Shown here: positions 25,903 to 38,070 of the stretch, piece by piece
How positions within the stretch are numbered: position 1 is the first letter of the stretch
How the letters are laid out: every line of letters starts with the position of its first letter
DNA from: Dimargaris cristalligena
Taxonomy: Eukaryota
Direction of reading: 5' to 3'
DNA length: 38,070 bases
Assembly: GCA_003614675.1 (NCBI GenBank)
Contig: ML002364.1
Span: 1-38,070 of the forward strand
Position numbers and translations under genes: made by a program
The notes under the pieces: generated by a model
Database searches by the model: none
What the model was told of the DNA's origin: nothing
Seen by the model: only the letters and a program-made list of their open reading frames with translations

Positions 25903-26754
25903 ATGTTGGCCCCGAAACCCTTAGTTAAAATCTGCGGCATACGCCACCTGGAAGACCTCCAAATGGCCACCGAGGCCGGGGCTGATTTCCTGGGCATTAT
26001 CCTCGCTAATTCCAAACGCCGGGTAGACCTCGAGACGGCCCAGGCCATGGCCAGTTGGCTGCGAAAATACCGAGAGGACCGGGAGCAGGGTAGTACCCCC
26101 GTTACTACCGAAGTCTCGCCGGATCCACCCACCCCCACCCCCCCCCCCCCCCCCACTACCACTACCACTACCACTACTACTACTAATACAAACCACATCG
26201 ACCCGGACTGGTTCCATTCTAATGCCCGGCGCCTGGCCCAGGGCCCGCGTCCTCTCCTGGTCGGGGTATTTCTCAACCAACCGCTCGCAGAGATCCTCGA
26301 CCTTGCGGAGCGCATTCCGCTCGATATGGTCCAACTCCACGGTACGCAAGAACCGGCCCACTGGTGCCTTCGAATCCCCCGACCGGTGATCCGGGTCTTC
26401 CATGTGGACGCGAACTTCACGGACTATGACCCTATTGCGCGGCCGGGGTTTTACCAAGTCGCTTTGTTGGACGCTAAAGTGGCCGGAGTGGCCGCGGGCG
26501 ACCAAGGGGGGCGGGGGGTGGCGTTTGACTGGGAATTGACCCGGCCGGTAATGGAATCCAAACAGCCGTACGGGCTGGCCGGTGGTTTGAACCCGGATAA
26601 TGTCGCGGCGGCGGTCCGGATGTGCCGGCCGTGGCTGGTGGATGTGTCGAGCGGCGTCGAACGGGGTGCCGGGGAACTGAGGAAGGATGCCGAAAAAGTT
26701 CGGCGGTTTGTGGCGGAGGCTAAGGGTACTTCCACCACTCCTGGTCCGCTGTAG
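25903..26754 (+). CDS. TRP1: Stand-alone phosphoribosylanthranilate isomerase (TrpF), 283 aa
   Basis: Motifs LVKICGI, GADFLG, PLLVGVF, VQLHG, LLD..GGRGVAFDW, LAGGLNPDNV and DVSSGVE. ATG at 25903 in ACCATG context. No TrpG or TrpC coding sequence is visible upstream. Confidence 0.93.
   Translation: MLAPKPLVKICGIRHLEDLQMATEAGADFLGIILANSKRRVDLETAQAMASWLRKYREDREQGSTPVTTEVSPDPPTPTPPPPPTTTTTTTTTTNTNHIDPDWFHSNARRLAQGPRPLLVGVFLNQPLAEILDLAERIPLDMVQLHGTQEPAHWCLRIPRPVIRVFHVDANFTDYDPIARPGFYQVALLDAKVAGVAAGDQGGRGVAFDWELTRPVMESKQPYGLAGGLNPDNVAAAVRMCRPWLVDVSSGVERGAGELRKDAEKVRRFVAEAKGTSTTPGPL
26138..26186 (+). repeat. C17 homopolymer followed by an (ACY)n tract inside the TrpF CDS (poly-Pro, poly-Thr)
   Basis: C run at 26138-26154, then ACT/ACC codons. 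Confidence 0.85.
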
Positions 26755-27768: not shown

Positions 27769-29781
27769 ATGCCATCCGCCCACCTTTCTAGCGCCTACCG
27801 CTCGGTAGCCGACGTCCCTTTTGGGGTACACTTAGGCTTTGAACTTCCGTCCCCGGTAGCTTTACCTTTTGACTACATTATGGTCACCGATTCCGTCTCG
27901 GCCATCCCCAAATACGATTTCGCTCTCGAAAAGAAAATCCTCGAGGAAGTCGAGGAGCGCCGCAAAACGGAACAGCTCCAGGCCTTGACCCAGGCCGAAC
28001 AGAAACGCATGACCCTGATGTTGGCCCACGCTTCGCTGGGCGTGGGCAGTTCGACGGGGGCTAGCTCCAACTCCACTATCGCTGCTTCGGCTATGGTTTC
28101 TTCAGCGTCGGCTTCCGTAGCAGCGCTGGCCCAAGTTCCCAGTCAAGTTATGACAGCCCCGGCCGCTAGTCCAGCGGCGGGAAGGAATTCCATGGTTTCA
28201 CCAGTTCCCACTACAACCACCACCACCACCACTACTACTACTACCATACCTACAACTGCGACGAACGAGGCGGCTTTCCAGGGTCCCCCAACATCCCTAC
28301 CACCCAACAACACCAGTACCACTTTTGGTTCTAATGCTTCCATGTACATGACTCCTTCCAGCCAGTTCCAGCCCCAGTCTCATCCACCGCACTCCATGGC
28401 CAGCCCTCCCCACATGGCATCCCCTCCAGCGGTTGAAACAGCCACTCCCAATACCAATCCCAATACGACGGCTACGACTACAGTCTCTGCCGCCGCCTAC
28501 TCGTCGTCCTACTCAGCGTATGCTAATACTGGGCCAAACGGCGGGAGCTACTATCCCCCGGCCACCTCCCAGCAGCCCCCCACCAAACCCCAATACCAGC
28601 ACCAATCCCAACCTGAATACCAATACCAATACCAGAATACGTATCAGAGTCAGCCCCCACAATCGCAATCACAGCCACAGCTACCACCACCACAACAGCA
28701 ACAACAGCAGGCACAACCACAATCAAGACCGCAACCTCCCGCTCCGACGAACTATATGCCCAACAACTCCCCTCCTGCTCTGCCCACCAAGCCGGCTTCC
28801 AGTCCCGGTTACATGTCCAATGCTCCCTCCGACTACGGCGGTGGTTCCCCCTATACCAACAGTCCCGGCTCCTCAAGCACCGCCCCTCCCCCCATTCCCC
28901 CCCGCCTCCCGAAACGGCCCGCTAATAATTCGTTCATCACTCCCGTCGGTCCCTATGCCTCCTCCCCTTCTCTTAATACGTCGTCGGTCAACGGTACCCC
29001 CACGATGCCCTCAATATCCCCCGGCCAACGGCCCCCTATTCCACATTACGGTCAGCCAAACCAGTCCCAATCCCAATCCCAATCCCAATCCCAGTATCAA
29101 AACCTAAACCAAAACCAATATCAACAGCCACCCCAGTCCCCGACCTATAACAATACCAATGCCAATACCCATAACTATGGCGGGGGAGCCCCCCCACCAC
29201 CACCCCCGCCCGTACCTCCGAAATCATTCATCCTAAGTGATTACGATTATATCCAATCGGCCCACGTCAATACCCTTCTCCCCCCGCCCCAGTCTTCTTC
29301 TACCCCGTACCAATCCCAGTCGGCTACCTCAGATTATAATCCCTACGGTAACACCACCATGCCCTCGGGAGGGAACTCCCAGCAGTACTCACACCTGGCT
29401 TCGTCCCATGGCGGCGGCGGTGGTGGTGGCCCATCCTCCAGTGGTGGTGATTATCCACCTTATTCATCATCCTACCACAACAACTCTTCCACGTCCATGG
29501 GGGGCCTCCCTTCCGGATCAGGCGTCGGTGCCGGGTCGAGTAGTAGTAGTAGTAGTATGCCCCATCCTAATCAGTCGTCCGGTTATCCGTCCTCCCACCA
29601 CTACCACCACCATACTTCGCAATCCCCCTACCCGTTCCAAGATGATAATGATCCCAATACCGTCGAACAGGTCCGTGACCTGATGGCAATGGGCTTCTCC
29701 CGCCATCAGGCCGTACACGCCCTGGAAGCCTTTGACTATGATTTAACCAAGGCGACCAATTATCTTTTGGACCAATCTTAA
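27769..29781 (+). CDS. UBAP1-like protein with N-terminal UMA domain, P/Q/S-rich linker and C-terminal UBA domain, 670 aa
   Basis: VADVPFGVHLGFELPSPVALP...YDFALEKKILEE resembles the UMA domain. VRDLMAMGFSRHQAVHALEAFDYDLTKATNYLL is a UBA (MGF) signature. Confidence 0.8.
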   Translation: MPSAHLSSAYRSVADVPFGVHLGFELPSPVALPFDYIMVTDSVSAIPKYDFALEKKILEEVEERRKTEQLQALTQAEQKRMTLMLAHASLGVGSSTGASSNSTIAASAMVSSASASVAALAQVPSQVMTAPAASPAAGRNSMVSPVPTTTTTTTTTTTTIPTTATNEAAFQGPPTSLPPNNTSTTFGSNASMYMTPSSQFQPQSHPPHSMASPPHMASPPAVETATPNTNPNTTATTTVSAAAYSSSYSAYANTGPNGGSYYPPATSQQPPTKPQYQHQSQPEYQYQYQNTYQSQPPQSQSQPQLPPPQQQQQQAQPQSRPQPPAPTNYMPNNSPPALPTKPASSPGYMSNAPSDYGGGSPYTNSPGSSSTAPPPIPPRLPKRPANNSFITPVGPYASSPSLNTSSVNGTPTMPSISPGQRPPIPHYGQPNQSQSQSQSQSQYQNLNQNQYQQPPQSPTYNNTNANTHNYGGGAPPPPPPPVPPKSFILSDYDYIQSAHVNTLLPPPQSSSTPYQSQSATSDYNPYGNTTMPSGGNSQQYSHLASSHGGGGGGGPSSSGGDYPPYSSSYHNNSSTSMGGLPSGSGVGAGSSSSSSSMPHPNQSSGYPSSHHYHHHTSQSPYPFQDDNDPNTVEQVRDLMAMGFSRHQAVHALEAFDYDLTKATNYLLDQS

Positions 29782-29902: not shown

Positions 29903-30777
29903 ACTCTCTCGGTTTTTATATTCTCAAATAATAATAGAGTGGTTGGAATCCAACAAAACACAAAAACAAAGCAGAGTTGAACAGTGTGGGTGATCAGAAA
30001 CAAAATGGAAAAGAAGGGTCGAAGAAAAATACCGTAAATGATGGTTTAAAATATTAGACGACGACTATGGGGGAATATAGATATAAGTCAGGGGATTTGG
30101 TAACAAATCAAAATAAAAAGATGAAATAATAGTAATATGGGGATGGAGAAGGCGGGATATTGAGATAGAGGTAGGTAGAATGACAAAGGGCGAAAATAAG
30201 AAAGAAATGATAACCAGAGCAATACTAATAAATAAATAAAAAGAAAGTGGGAGATGGAAGGGGTATAATGTATAATAGTTAAAATAGCACAATTAGACCA
30301 AAGTGGCTGGTAAAAGAGAGGTTGGGGGCAAAATAGATTGAACTATATAAATTTATACGACATAATCAGTGAACGGGCCAAAAAAAATAAAAAGAGGAAG
30401 AATGCTCGATTTGCAAAGGTGGTTGAGAGAATGAAGGACTCAACAATTTAAAAACAGGGATTGAGTCGTAAAAGATCAACCCATAAGAGTACAAGGTGTA
30501 CACTGGGAGGATGGTAGGTGCCTCTACTACCACACCATTTTCACAGCCAAATCGAACACAATAAGAGAGAAGAAATACTAGTCAACAAATGCAGCTAAGG
30601 GGAAGAAAGGAAGGAGGAGGGAGGGCGAGTTGGAGAATAAATAAAGTCGGAGAAGAGGGAGAGGGGAATCAACCGTATATTTAATCATTATTATTACTTT
30701 TCCATAAAAGCAAAAATAAAATATGCACCAAGTGAAGAGAGCCAGTTATACTACTACTACTACTACTACTACTGCTA

Positions 30778-33700
30778 TTACTTGCGGGCCATCGGCTGTC
30801 TATCCGACGGAAGGGCCGGTAGCGGATGTCCCCCTAGCCCGCCTCCCCCACTCATATTGGCACCGGTGGGAGATAAAGGCGAATTGGTCGAGCTCATAGC
30901 CTTATCCATCCAGGCTTGGAGTAGTTTATCGGCGATCCCCGGCACTTCCAATTCCGCCCGGTGGAACGCCTCCGCCAGGGCTTTGAGGGCGTTCCGTGCA
31001 GGCAGGTGCGGGGTACGCAGTTGGAGTTGCCGAATGACAGGGTCGATGATTTGGCGGTGGGTGGTGTGCGGGGACGTAAAGGCGAACGTGACACGAGATG
31101 AGTTTTTAGCTTGGGACCCCCCGGGGCTTGCCGAAGGGGAAGCCGGGATCCCACTGGGGCCGGGGGGCGTCGTCGAGGATAGGGAGAGGCCCGCCAAATT
31201 AGGGGGCTTGGGCGGAACCATGAGCGGTGATTTGAGCCCGCTGGCCCCCCCGGAGGCGCCGTGTCCATTCCCATAGTGACTACCGGCGGTCCGGGGCGAT
31301 GGGAGGTGAGTCGACCCTGGGTTATGCTGCCCGTTCAATTTAGCCGAACTGGCCGAGGCCATACCGCTCCCACTACTACTACTACTACTATTTCCACTAT
31401 GCAACCCGTTGCGAGTGGGCAAGGCATGCATCCCGAGCGGGTTAGTCACCTTACGCAGTTGGGGAGTAAAATCATGACCACCACTGGTCGTCGAAGTTGA
31501 CGTGGTGGTAGTCGACGACACCGTGGCAAGCGAGGCCGTTGATGCCGTTGGCGACAGCAGTCCCGAAGAATTGGACTTGATGGCCGAGTCATTCTGCAAT
31601 CCCGTTGAAGAAGTCGTAGAAGAGGACGATAGGGCCGTTTCATGGGATAGCTCACTCGACGGTGTACCCCGACGGAGGTAATTCTTGATGAACAAATTCT
31701 CGTTCAGCCCCTGGCCCGTGAGTTTCGGGGGTGGGTTGGCCGCCGCACCGGAAACTCCCGCAGGGTTATCCGTAGAGGATCGGTGGGTCAAGATCCCGCC
31801 CCCATAAGGTGAGCGGAACTCGGTGCTGTGGCCGTTGTTTGAGTTGGAATGGTCGTTCAGGCCGGAGTCCGTACTAAACTCCGATCGTAAGGCGGAGGTG
31901 GAGGCTCGGGGGCGCGCCTGGCCCGCGGCGGGAATGTTACTTCCACCTGTGGCTGTCGACCCTACATTGGTGGCGGCATTCGAGGTACCCAGAGCATCCT
32001 TAGCGCGCTGAAGAGCAGTAGCTGCCGAGGCTCTTAGCTGCTGCAGCGAAGGCGGACGATTCGGAGTGGAAGGCGATGGACTATTCCGACTTTGGTTAGT
32101 ATTGTTCATATCCGAGCCGCCGAAGGAGGAGGAGGATGGCACGGGAGAGGCCGGCTGCGATGAATGAAGGCGTTCGTAGGCCGCGGGCATCACCGGATTC
32201 GAGTAGGAGTTAGCACTGCTTCCAGCATTGCTGGATGGCGGTGTGGAATCGCGGGACCCCACAAGCTGGCTATGTCCCAAACCCTGACCGTATCCATGGC
32301 CGTGGCCACCGAATGCGGGAGCCGGCACGGCCGATGCAGCGCGGGGTCGAGATGAACCGGGAGAATTGTTAATCGAGACGGAGGAGGCGGTGGATTTGGT
32401 CGGCGAACCTGGATAGCCACTAACATTGGGCCTGACGGGGGATGGGGCAATTAATTGCTGGGGCGAAGCGGTGCCCGTGCGCTTGGTAGGTGTAGTGGGC
32501 TGCGGGGGTAACGGGGCGTTCGGGACATGCCGTTGCTGCACCGTACCGAAATCCCAATCATCGCCACCGCCACCGCTACCGGAACCCGATTCGTCATCAG
32601 CCACGGCTTCGGACATGCGGCGGCCACCCCCGGCTGCAGGGGCGGCAGCGTCACCTCCACCTTCTTTACCGTCCTTACCTTTATTGGGCTGCCGATTAAT
32701 TCCCAACTGAGCCAGACTCTGTCCCCCTCTCGCCAGTAAATGCCGATCCCGCCGTTCAATCAAGTCGGTTAAATACGACGTTTTTCGGGCATTCCGAATA
32801 AAGCGATGTTTCAGCAAATCTTTGGCCGTGGGTCGTAAAGCAGGATCCTTGTTCAAACACAAGCTGACGAACTCTTTGAACGGCTTCGTGAACTCACCCG
32901 TTAGGACCGGGGGTTCATTTTTAGGGATGAGGAACAGGACCTTCATGGGGTGTAGTTCAGCGTAGGGGGGTTGCCCCTTCGCCATTTCTATAGCAGTAAT
33001 GCCGAGCGACCAGATGTCGGCTTTGGGCCCATAGCCCGATTGTTTGATGACCTCCGGGGCCATCCAAAAGGGGGTCCCCACGAATGTATTCTTCTTGGTC
33101 ATGGTTGCCGACAATTGACCTGACACGCCGAAATCGGCCAGTTTAATATCGCCTGATGCTGAAAGGAGGATGTTGGCGGCCTTGATGTCGCGGTGCAACT
33201 TACGCTCGTTATGGAGGTAATCAAGGCCTTTAATGATCTCGCGCATGATAATGGCGATGTAGAGTTCGGGGATCAGGCCTGGTTTCATTAGATCGGCGCA
33301 GGACCCACCTGCACAGTATTCCATCACAATCCAGAGATTGGAGCCTTTGAGGTAGGAACCGAAGTAACGAGTAACGAAGGGAGAATCCATTTGGGCAAGA
33401 ATTTGGATCTCGAGCTGGATGTCTTCTATTTCATCTTCGGCACTTTCGAGGTCGATGATCTTGATGGCGACGGGACGTTTGTTGGCACGATCGAACCTAG
33501 AGGGGATTATGCGTGGATATGGGTATGGATGTAATGTAATAAATACATCGTATATATAATCGAATGGGTCAGAAGAGAGTATAGACATAATAAATCAGAT
33601 AGGTCATATCTATGGTGGTCAGGATGAATATACTATCACTGGATATGGCAGGGAAGTGTAAAGTTGGCTTACCCTTTGTAGACTTCGCCAAAGGACCCTT

Positions 33701-35316: not shown

Positions 35317-36347
35317 ATGGCCGCCACTCTCCCAAAGCGCATCACCAAGGTATATTCTTACATATATATATATATATATCTACTCACTAAGTCCGCTGGT
35401 TCGGCCCAGGCTATAGCACTTTCTCTGTATCTCCTGCCATCTCCGCTCCACCTCCCGCCAGTCAACCTTGGCCTCCCGCATACAGTCCCACCTGACCATT
35501 TACTAAGTTGTACCCCTACACAAAAACACATCTCCCCTTCTGCCCATCCGATAAACCCCCCGGTAACATATATTCTAGGAAATTGAACGCCTGGTCAAGG
35601 ATCCCGTGCCAGGAATCGTCGCACAGCCCCATGAGGACAACTTAAGGCACTTCAACGTCCAAATGGCCGGCCCCACTCAATCTCCTTTCGAAGGTAAGCA
35701 AGAGCCTAAACCGGTCACTACTTTAAAGGTGGGGGAGCGCACACACCGCCTTAGTAGCAATAGTAGTGGTATTTCAATTGGTCCATCAGCCTCTAAGCCA
35801 ATCGTATACAACGGTATATGTACACCCTGTTTCCCCCCTTTCGCTCCTTAAGATGCCCCTCGGCACACATACTATCACTACCACTCTACCACTGTCACTT
35901 ACCCCGGCCCAACCCACTACCATTCCCCGAGTTTACTGTGCACTACAGCGGCACTTTCACATAAATTAATCTCTTTACATCATATGCCGCTACCCTTCCA
36001 TTGATCACCACCCTCCTCCCTTTTGGCCAGGTGGCGAATTCCGACTGGAGCTCTTTTTGCCCGAGGGTTACCCCATGGAGCCCCCCATGGTTCGTTTCCT
36101 GACCCGCATCTACCATCCCAACATTGACAAGCTCGGCCGTATCTGTCTCGACATCCTCAAGGACAAATGGTCGCCCGCCCTGCAGATCCGGACCGTCCTG
36201 CTCTCGATACAGGCGCTCCTTTCCGCCCCTAACCCCGACGATCCCCTGGATAACGGTGTTGCCCAGCACTGGAAGGATAATGAAAAGGATGCTATTGCTA
36301 CCGCCACCGCCTGGACTAAACAGTACGCCCAGCCGGCCCCCCAGTAA
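35317..36347 (+). CDS. UBC13: Ubiquitin-conjugating enzyme E2 N (Ubc13), 154 aa, 3 exons
   Basis: Exons 35317-35349, 35579-35693 and 36031-36347. Motifs [16 protein letters not shown] and [37 protein letters not shown]. Confidence 0.97.
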
Positions 36348-36929
36348 TTGCCTTGGAGTCAGATATTGGTACGGAAACCCTCCCCCACTCCATATGTGGC
36401 TGTGAGGTACTAGTCTATATTCTTCATCCAGGTATATATATATAAATATATGGTCTGTAATCATTGCAAACCAAGCAAGTATGTCGTTCGTGGGTTCATT
36501 GTTATCTTTTTTCAATATTAATAGCTTTGTTTGCCTGTTACCATGGTCCATTTACCCTTATCCTGCTGTTTGGTTTCAACTGCATTTACCACATCCCTAG
36601 CTTCGTATGTTCTATAAGCATCATCCACTAGGTTAGGATCGTCTATAAAAATATACTGTTATTTGAAGACCCGGACACAAATTGCACAGATTGGTAGCAA
36701 TGGTCTAAAATGTGGTATATAGTAGTTAAATAATTGAGTAATCAAGGGTACTGGCACACTAAAATATTTGCCCACTATATTCCCCGGTGGCGATATGCTT
36801 GCCTTGATGAAATATAGCACGACCAGGGACAGGGAAGTGTGTGATTGCTATCCATTTGGGTCACTCACATTGTAGTCCTTCAATATAAGGTATGTTTGGA
36901 AAACAGTGATTTACATATTAGAGGGTAGA

Positions 36930-37760
36930 TACACGGTCTAACCCAAAAGTTTTGTCACTAGTGCTCTAAAATAAAAACATTTTAAAATATTTACATTTTT
37001 TTTCTGTTTATTCAAAATAAGATCCTTTTTCATCAATACACTGTTGGAATCACCTAAACAATGAGTGGAAGCAGCCTAGAAACCCATCCTCCAAGATGCC
37101 CTTTATGATGCCAGTTATAGCATCTTAGATGTCCTGTATGGAGCTGCAATGCTCCTCTTTTATAGCCAGCTTAAGTTTTGGGAATAGCCAGAAGTCAGTT
37201 AGGGCTAGATCAGGGGAATACAGTGGGTAGTCAAGTACTACCACACCTCTTTTAGCCAAATATGCCCAGATAATTTTGTACTTATATACAGGTGCACTAT
37301 CATGGAGGAAACTCCAGGATCATTACTTCTTGTACTCTGGCCTTACATAGTTAATCTTTGCCAGTAGGTATATCTAGACTCCCAGGTAGTAATGCCCAGT
37401 GACTATTTAGCCTTGGGGAGTGAATTCCTGGTAGATAATCCCTTTGGAGTTGAAGAAAATAGTGAGCAAAGTCTTGATTTAGCTCAGCTAAAGGTGTGAT
37501 TTCTTTAGTCTTAGATCTTCAGAACCTACCTACTCAGAGCTATTACATTGTATTAATAGCTCATATTGGAAGCACCAAGTCTCATTACTAGTAATAATAC
37601 TTCCAGTAAAGCTTTGGTTATTTTTGCCTATTTTCTGTATGTCTAAGCTGTAGTCCACTCTAGATATCATTTAGTCATTAGTTAGCTGGTGGGGGATAAA
37701 CTGGGTGCAGATCTTTTTTAGATGTAAATCCTTAAGCAGAATCCTATTGATAGTAGACCT
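36930..37760 (-). mobile_element. 5'-truncated mariner (DD34D) DNA transposon relic
   Basis: A dead transposase frame lies at 37760-37008. A candidate TA target plus terminal repeat TA|CACGGTCTAACCCAAAAGTTTTGTCACT lies at 36930-36959, about 50 bp past the stop. The CpG-free tract starts immediately inside it. The partner TIR is not visible in the window. Confidence 0.85.
37008..37760 (-). pseudogene. Mariner transposase pseudogene (250 codons, 10 internal stops, no frameshift)
   Basis: Manual translation gives FIPHQLT (WVPHEL motif), IITSNETW (ITGDETW), FFNSKGII, FLHDSAP, YSPDLALTDFWLFPKLK and CIDEKGSYFE*. There are 34 residues between the 2nd and 3rd catalytic Asp. Confidence 0.93.
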
Positions 37761-37861
37761 TGTGGTGAACTTACCACATTTTTTACCTACTTTTATTTTT
37801 AATCCATTTTTCACACTTATCAGAAGTATGCCCCTGACAAGTGAATGAGCCCCTGCCCCTG
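37761..37861. repeat. Right copy of the 101-bp inverted repeat; TGT-starting element end abutting the broken mariner ORF
   Basis: Its reverse complement matches 7-107 at 95/101 positions. The match ends exactly where the recognisable mariner coding sequence begins (37760). Confidence 0.9.
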
Positions 37862-38070
37862 ACCAGATGGTACCGCTGCACCCACACTACCCCTGGCCCA
37901 ACTGTGTCCCTGTTAAAATAATAGCTAACAATAACTTTCTCCCTTTCTTTTTTCCCCTTCTATTATTTCACATTAAATTTATTGGTTACCCAAGTATTAC
38001 CTATCCTTTGTGATTACTAATATGATTATCTGGGAACTCCCTTCCCTTTCCCTTTGCTTAGTCATCCAAT

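Follow-up and report, generated by a model that had tools for sequence, protein, structure and literature searches.

Repeat-induced point mutation (RIP) counts as a hallmark of ascomycetes, and analogues of the CpG type occur in some basidiomycetes. The order of RIP targets in Neurospora crassa is CpA > CpT > CpG > CpC, and in Aspergillus and Penicillium the targets are CpG plus CpA. CpG-focused hypermutation of transposons in Basidiomycota is reportedly the topic of Horns et al. 2012. Here we analyze contig ML002364.1 of the fungus Dimargaris cristalligena (GenBank assembly GCA_003614675.1), whose entire 38,070 nucleotides we call the window. Near one end of the window lies the relic of a mariner-family DNA transposon (36932–37760, minus strand), in which C:G to T:A changes are concentrated at CpG and CpA.

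In the accessible portions of two articles (PMC7862722, PMC13297926), basidiomycetes are described as having CpG-type methylation by DNMT1-RFD plus DNMT5, ascomycetes as having RID and DIM-2, and early-diverging fungi as having very low levels of 5-methylcytosine (5mC). Nearer to Dimargaris, the accessible text of Stajich et al. 2024 (PMC11105155) gives a positive composite RIP index in the Entomophthorales (for Zoophthora radicans, in 24.2% of sequence windows), an index to which the authors themselves attach major caveats. As far as that text goes, their case resembles ours in belonging to the same phylum, Zoopagomycota, and in hinting at RIP-like mutation outside Dikarya; it differs in that the evidence there is compositional only, whereas here a single element from a different subphylum provided a polarised, context-resolved spectrum. 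Among the papers listed by our literature searches there was no report of RIP or of cytosine methylation in Dimargaritales or Kickxellomycotina, and nothing that paired Dimargaris with a DNA methyltransferase.

The transposase remnant of the relic comprises 250 codons (37011–37760, minus strand), which correspond to about residues 129–372 of its nearest relative and matched the Pfam family Transposase_1 (PF01359; E = 3e-6, with 27.4 bits where the cut-off is 24). Among 5.8 billion proteins searched, 8 relatives of the remnant were identified. The nearest of these, P0124, is an intact transposase of 372 amino acids that is present in public assemblies, shares 68% identity with the remnant and contains the domains HTH_48 (PF17906), Transposase_1 (PF01359) and DDE_3 (PF13358). 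Three further relatives, P0125, P0126 and P0127, were 53, 48 and 45% identical to the remnant. An initial annotation, made from the letters of the window alone, had counted 250 codons with ten stops and no frameshift, and the gapless alignment to these homologues agreed with that count. The minus-strand frame from 37874 to 36933 holds 314 codons and 12 stops, and the remnant forms codons 39–288 of it, with neither gap nor frameshift relative to the homologues; ten of the stops are premature ones within the remnant, one is the natural TAA and one lies further on in the 3’ tail. By these alignments, the 36932–37760 stretch is a dead, 5’-truncated copy of a mariner-family element.

To each column we assigned the residue of P0124 as ancestral where at least one of P0125–P0127 agreed with it, which was the case in 207 of 250 columns, and we counted only codons that reach the ancestral residue by one unambiguous base change. 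The resulting 59 changes were made up of 30 G>A, 18 C>T, 5 A>G, no T>C and 6 transversions; that is, 48 of the 59 were C:G>T:A transitions, as RIP requires. Rates are given per non-synonymous opportunity in the same 207 columns. CpG was hit at 10 of 20 sites, and all 13 restored CpG dinucleotides were gone. CpA was hit at 30 of 66 sites (45%), as compared with 3 of 50 for CpT (6%) and 5 of 53 for CpC (9%). A>G or T>C changes were seen at 5 of 220 sites (2.3%), and transversions accounted for 6 of 1043 possible changes. The difference between CpA and the sum of CpT and CpC was highly significant (Fisher odds ratio 9.9, p = 2.4e-8), and it persisted when two or three outgroups were required to agree (p = 5e-8 and p = 1e-5, respectively). 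The mutation rate of CpA sites was ~20 times the A>G/T>C background and 5–7 times that of cytosines in the remaining non-CpG contexts, and transitions from GC to AT exceeded those from AT to GC ~11-fold per site (48/189 vs 5/220). The effect of the 5’ neighbor was not clear (ACA 8/13, CCA 12/33, GCA 4/16, TCA 6/19). The claim of C>T hypermutation at both CpG and CpA was thus borne out.

The argument by which the initial annotation had reached CpA targeting was weak, although its conclusion survived. That argument drew on premature stops, among other lesions; because TAA and TAG can arise by transition only from CAA, CAG and TGG, stops report CpA/TpG events by construction, and this bias of the genetic code meant that they could not decide the matter. 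The opportunity-corrected test described above (p = 2.4e-8) is what upholds CpA targeting. We also considered the middle base of NCN codons, at which every C>T change is non-synonymous whatever the third base. Here, C>T changes were found at 7 of 15 NCA and 2 of 2 NCG codons, but at 0 of 8 NCC and 0 of 21 NCT codons. When 500 context-free simulations were put through the same pipeline, the ratio of the CpA rate to that of CpT plus CpC was 1.13 ± 0.40 with a maximum of 3.6, as compared with an observed ratio of 5.6. As a control gene we used SYF1, a single-exon unique gene of the window, in the same pipeline with the Tieghemiomyces residue taken as ancestral where Dimargaris xerosporica or Dispira supported it. 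This gave 55 changes (14 C>T/G>A, 13 A>G/T>C and 28 transversions) and no CpA-type hit at any of 112 sites, indicating that the pipeline does not create the mariner signal.

The spectrum was compared at the DNA level with other copies from the same organism, using contigs of four of its five public runs aligned on 36300–38070 at a likeness of at least 80%. Single-copy DNA extended to about 36929–36951 (depth 85–245); between that point and 37760, each of the listed places was covered by 2 to 18 further contigs per run, which differed from the window by ~12–19% in the longest listed pieces. Our sample consisted of 40 listed places out of 526 variable ones, 28 of them in the mariner, at which almost every other copy has a letter unlike that of the window. 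Because the listed places were chosen where the other copies agree, hot sites are disfavored in this sample. At 14 of the 28, the window had T or A where the others had C or G, and these were 10 CpA-type, 4 CpT-type and 0 CpC-type; among the listed places, the CpA-type share of 10/14 thus exceeded the expected 0.34 (binomial p = 0.004). The letters of the other copies restored a residue shared with the homologues at 18 of the 28 places: 12 C>T/G>A places, with restored residues including L>P, Y>C, Y>H, K>R, I>V, *>Q and N>D; 4 transversion places out of 7 (*>G, *>L, Q>K, I>L); and also 2 A>G places. At 37513 and 37111, the residue restored was that of P0124 alone. At 37349 the homologues have R, the other copies have CAT and the window has TAT, so that the order is visible: CpG was hit first and CpA second. 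The unmutated letters in the other copies indicate that the hits are specific to the window copy and took place within this genome once the copies had separated.

When decayed copies were sought by a protein-fragment search with P0124, 1111 matches were obtained, but among the best 120 of these none exceeded 62% identity, so that none of those listed could serve as a further copy of this genome; a metagenome scan with P0124 found one locus only, at 34% identity. We also observed that a run from a second study (X2) differed from the window at 36488, 36559, 36641 and 36731 in the single-copy flank, the difference at 36641 being CpG>CpA. One contig listed from that run was close to the mutated mariner (37403–37653), with a single-letter difference; this near-identity indicates that the mutated state is older than the split of the two isolates.

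The initial annotation had contrasted a stretch void of CpG with CpG-rich coding neighbors, and this contrast stood. There was no CpG between 36935 and 37873, and the only CpG of the mariner part is at 36934, among the terminal bases. The C and G content of the mariner itself would predict about 29, and 22 would be present if CpG were as dense as in unique non-coding sequence (Poisson P = 6e-9). The observed/expected (o/e) ratio of CpG was 0.91 in DNA of the window with long open reading frames (ORFs) and 0.75 in the 10,191 bases of unique DNA without them, which have 42% GC and a TpA/ApT of 1.01. CpG-free tracts of at least 300 bases occurred in the 38 kb only at 56–985 and 36935–37873, and both lie on contig ends that bear repeats. 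Within the window, CpG loss is tied to repeats. For CpA, confinement to repeats was addressed only by composition (TpA/ApT 1.01 in unique DNA) and by SYF1, a gene under selection (0/112).

Composition indices, which the initial annotation had proposed as a check, gave a divided result. RIP is usually called where TpA/ApT is above ~0.89 and (CpA+TpG)/(ApC+GpT) is below ~1.03. The mariner had a CpA o/e of 1.12, a TpA o/e of 1.07, a TpA/ApT of 1.21 and a (CpA+TpG)/(ApC+GpT) of 1.19. Its TpA/ApT value is over the threshold, but it barely exceeds the background of 1.01, and the second index pointed the other way. The value of 1.19 is explicable because ~30 lost CpGs refill CpA and TpG; still, this does not make it a positive result. 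The indices had suggested decay of CpG alone, a candidate that was dropped after the polarised CpA test.

The lesions that the initial annotation had named in the coding sequence (Q>stop, W>TAG, H>Y, TGD>TSN, R>TGA and FFD>FFN) were all present when real homologues were used as the reference. The ten premature stops are at 37673–71, 37532–30, 37490–88, 37481–79, 37409–07, 37376–74, 37325–23, 37322–20, 37127–25 and 37052–50. Four are Q>TAA (LTND*, PQG*, DI*, KK*), one is Q>TAG, one is W>TAG (SSE*) and one is R>TGA; one R>TAA requires two steps, and two of the ten came from transversions (L>TAG, G>TGA). H>Y was found five times, including DYPLYSPDL and GIIYQEF, and other lesions relative to the homologues were TGD>TSN, FFD>FFN and R>Y (CGT>TAT) at YVRP. 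The last of these, which the initial annotation had read as a likely CG>TA double hit, is one of four two-step codon changes (CGC>TAC, CGT>TAT, CGA or AGA>TAA, CCG>TTG). Shuffled sequence of the same composition contained 16.5 ± 3.8 stops per 250 codons, as compared with 10 in the remnant; the frame is badly broken, yet its Pfam match leaves it recognizable as a gene.

The host was predicted to be a fungus outside Dikarya, and a phylogeny of SYF1 bore this out. The best matches of the gene beyond the window were in Tieghemiomyces parasiticus (64% identity), Dimargaris xerosporica (65%) and Dispira simplex (59%), with 55–60% identity to other zygomycetes and ~50–53% to ascomycetes. A quick maximum-likelihood tree of 27 rows, with support from the Shimodaira–Hasegawa-like approximate likelihood ratio test (SH-aLRT), put the window inside Dimargaritales (SH-aLRT 100) beside Tieghemiomyces (96), grouped Dimargaritales with Kickxellales (97) and held Ascomycota as a separate clade (100). 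On the sequence of this gene, the host is a non-Dikarya fungus of the Dimargaritales (Kickxellomycotina, Zoopagomycota). An ascomycete with ordinary RIP was ruled out by the distinct Ascomycota clade of the same tree. The interpretation given by the initial annotation is accordingly supported at the level of mutational signature and of taxonomy.

The locus has much in common with RIP as known from Pezizomycotina. The changes in the mariner are almost exclusively C:G>T:A (48/59), they show a strong preference set by the 3’ neighbor with CpA as a main target, both strands were hit, and a repeated transposon was targeted while nearby unique DNA seems to have been spared. It is unlike that system in that the host belongs to Kickxellomycotina, where RIP is not established, in that CpG was hit at least as hard as CpA, and in that the mariner misses the classical (CpA+TpG)/(ApC+GpT) index. 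With the CpG hypermutation or 5mC decay of Basidiomycota the locus shares repeats that have lost all CpG beside genes and unique DNA that keep it. In contrast to those fungi, the mariner has a second target, CpA (30/66), mutated 5–7 times as often as CpT and CpC, and for this reason CpG-only methylation does not explain it.

We tentatively favor the reading that a RIP-like genome defense hit the mariner copy, to which we would give slightly less than an even chance. Under this reading, the copy in the window would have separated from the other 5–18 mariner copies in the genome and then been mutated by a process that turns C:G into T:A almost exclusively, with a strong preference for C before G or A, and that would have spared nearby unique DNA. 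Such a process would be an enzyme-driven deamination aimed at repeated DNA, which probably depends on a cytosine methyltransferase. We infer that duplication is its trigger, that an enzyme and not slow chemistry does the deamination, and that repeats as such are its target, throughout the genome. A RIP-like process is favored because CpA is the classical RIP target, because background divergence is low and because transitions from GC to AT outnumber the reverse ~11-fold per site, with unique non-coding DNA at 42% GC. That Kickxellomycotina possess a duplication-triggered defense of the RIP type, either because RIP predates Dikarya and goes back to the common ancestor of terrestrial fungi or because a non-RID enzyme independently evolved the same deamination directed at CpA and CpG, seems to us rather unlikely. 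Several observations weigh against a RIP-like process. SYF1 is under selection, so that it serves as a control of the pipeline and not of the neutral spectrum, and the mariner fails the second classical RIP index (1.19 vs ~1.03). Among the 28 listed places there were 7 transversions and 4–5 A>G changes in the window copy, and over the whole aligned stretch in one run (X1) transitions comprised 315 of the 411 places that vary, a share that is not extreme. A runs test for strand-wise clustering of G>A and C>T changes was not significant (19 runs vs 23.5 ± 3.2 expected, z = −1.4), and strand-wise bursts are thus without support. Lastly, the accessible text of the kingdom-wide k-mer screen of Badet and Croll 2025 (PMC12543289) reports strong repeat-directed signatures in four ascomycete classes only: dothideomycetes, eurotiomycetes, leotiomycetes and sordariomycetes. 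Although the signal is strong and in this lineage was not to be expected, all of the polarised evidence for it comes from one copy of ~830 bases.

Slow chemistry could have left much the same record. If repeats were densely methylated at CpG and CpA by an enzyme of the DNMT1 or DIM-2 type, poorly repaired deamination of 5mC over a long time would fit the same data, namely the total loss of CpG, the partial loss of CpA (30/66) and little else, in repeats only. The absence of significant strand-wise clustering (z = −1.4) is in keeping with this, as is the abundant repeat at the contig ends described below, one copy of which keeps CpGs that the other has lost, as in a gradual process; and DIM-2- and DNMT1-class enzymes are reported from early-diverging fungi in the accessible portions of PMC7862722 and PMC13297926. 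However, CpA-specific methylation would have to be heavy in order to raise CpA ~20-fold over A>G/T>C changes and 5–7-fold over other non-CpG cytosines, and the low background divergence (transversions 6/1043) leaves little time; moreover, 5mC is close to undetectable in early-diverging fungi and DIM-2 prefers CpT, according to the accessible part of PMC7862722. We regard slow deamination as doubtful but still a substantial possibility, and the data do not separate it from a RIP-like process. Far less room is left for ordinary decay, in which CpG-only methylation loss and AT-biased drift would act together and the excess at CpA would be an artefact of inferring ancestors from amino acids. Stop codons do report only CpA/TpG events, and nothing stands out in the composition indices of the mariner (CpA o/e 1.12, TpA o/e 1.07). 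But the excess survived correction for opportunity, lay beyond the simulated maximum (5.6 vs 3.6), reappeared at NCN second positions, which are free of the stop-codon bias (7/15 vs 0/29), was missing from SYF1 (0/112) and recurred in the DNA-level copy comparison (10/14 CpA-type, p = 0.004), and GC>AT outran AT>GC ~11-fold per site while unique non-coding DNA stands at 42% GC. We consider ordinary decay largely refuted, and its probability very small. The mutations might also have been made in a donor host before the element arrived, or by an APOBEC-like deaminase acting on a transposition intermediate. Horizontal arrival is plausible, given that the nearest named relatives are from arthropods (see below), and in the accessible part of a preprint (10.1101/2025.06.16.659975) Tc1/mariner elements are the ones most often transferred in fungi. 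Other copies in the same genome nevertheless hold the unmutated letters, so that the hits post-date the copy split; the changes fall on both strands (G>A 30 times, C>T 18 times), and a cut-and-paste DNA transposon lacks a reverse-transcribed single strand. APOBEC-type editing depends on the 5’ neighbor, whereas the preference found here is for the 3’ neighbor and a 5’ effect was not clear. An origin before arrival or by editing is therefore improbable in our view.

With the spectrum from Dimargaritales, the existence of RIP outside Dikarya becomes a concrete question, open to testing with public data. Judging from the accessible text of PMC11105155, the only hint in Zoopagomycota so far is a composition index with stated caveats. 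The answer bears on when mutagenic genome defense arose, and on the small, repeat-poor genomes of some early-diverging fungi.

The relic itself resembles transposases of the Mariner/Mos1/SETMAR type in its match to Transposase_1, in its 45–68% identity to intact transposases of 349–372 amino acids, in the DD34D spacing of its closest homologue and in the TA beside its 3’ end. By hand count, P0124 has 34 residues between its second and third D, which corresponds to DD34D spacing. Unlike such transposases, the window copy is without its ~128 first codons and its 5’ end, has ten premature stops and now has N in place of the first catalytic D. In the alignment, examined by eye, this first D is changed to N (TSNETW) while the second (LHDS) and the third (LTDFW) remain D; we take these three D residues to be the catalytic ones by analogy with Mos1. 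The copy begins at ...RSTINRIL (37760). At its other end, a natural transposase stop TAA follows GSYFE (37008–37010, minus strand), at the column where all four homologues end, and is succeeded by a 3’ untranslated end that includes a presumed terminal inverted repeat (36932–37007, minus strand); the similarity of other contigs starts at 36929–36951. Directly outside the 3’ end is a TA dinucleotide (36930–36931), which adjoins the start of the other-copy similarity; a TA beside an element end is read as the mariner target-site duplication, and we presume it to be so here, the 3’ terminus being the only one of the element in the window. We also noted that the named proteins nearest to the fungal mariner are from arthropods or carry the SETMAR name (a GVQW3-like protein of the spider Uloborus, MOS1T of the ant Acromyrmex and SETMAR-named proteins), with 41–61% identity to P0124; arthropod relatives of this kind make a horizontal arrival of the mariner possible.

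The initial annotation had extended the transposon from 36932 to 37873. The portion to 37760 is mariner, but 37761–37873 belongs to a different, abundant repeat. This unrelated and extremely abundant repeat runs from 37761 to the contig end at 38070, where summed contig depth reached 1.3e5–1.2e6 as compared with 85–245 for single-copy DNA, with a dip to 69,000–160,000 in the 37860–37919 bin. The terminus at 37760/37761 is sharp, and many contigs end at 37759–37761 with unrelated flanks; the abrupt jump in depth and these loose ends show 37761–38070 to be a different repeat from the mariner. The depth suggests that the repeat is present in thousands of copies, and the dip makes it look composite. 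From the arrangement of the two, the end repeat seems either to have cut off the 5’ part of the mariner or to have inserted into it. The window is an entire contig with the abundant repeat at both ends: pairwise alignment identified a second copy at 1–107, such that 37761–37864 is an inverted copy of 4–107 (104 bases, 93% identity, 7 differences). At three of the seven differences the copy at the contig start has CpG where the copy at the end has TpG or CpA, and one further difference is TpA vs TpG (places 13 and 38–54 vs 37815–37830). CpG loss thus differs between copies of this repeat family. Beyond this 104-base inverted pair we found no further internal repeats in the window, and an Rfam search of the whole window gave 0 matches.

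A second CpG-free tract, rich in TpA by composition, follows the start copy at 108–980. It contains 0 CpG, whereas a CpG density like that of unique non-coding DNA would give 24.6 (P = 2e-11), has a TpA o/e of 1.38, a TpA/ApT of 1.40 and a (CpA+TpG)/(ApC+GpT) of 0.98, which place it, unlike the mariner, on the RIP side of both thresholds, and is skewed in base content (G 212 vs C 135). A Pfam search of six frames of 108–1100 returned nothing above chance, the best being PsaF (E = 0.08, with 13 bits where the cut-off is 27). The tract is probably another decayed repeat. Elsewhere in the window, low-complexity stretches were observed in or beside long ORFs, made up of reiterated ACT/ACC triplets and of a poly-C tract, at 26128–26197, 28198–28261, 30741–30786 and 31354–31399.

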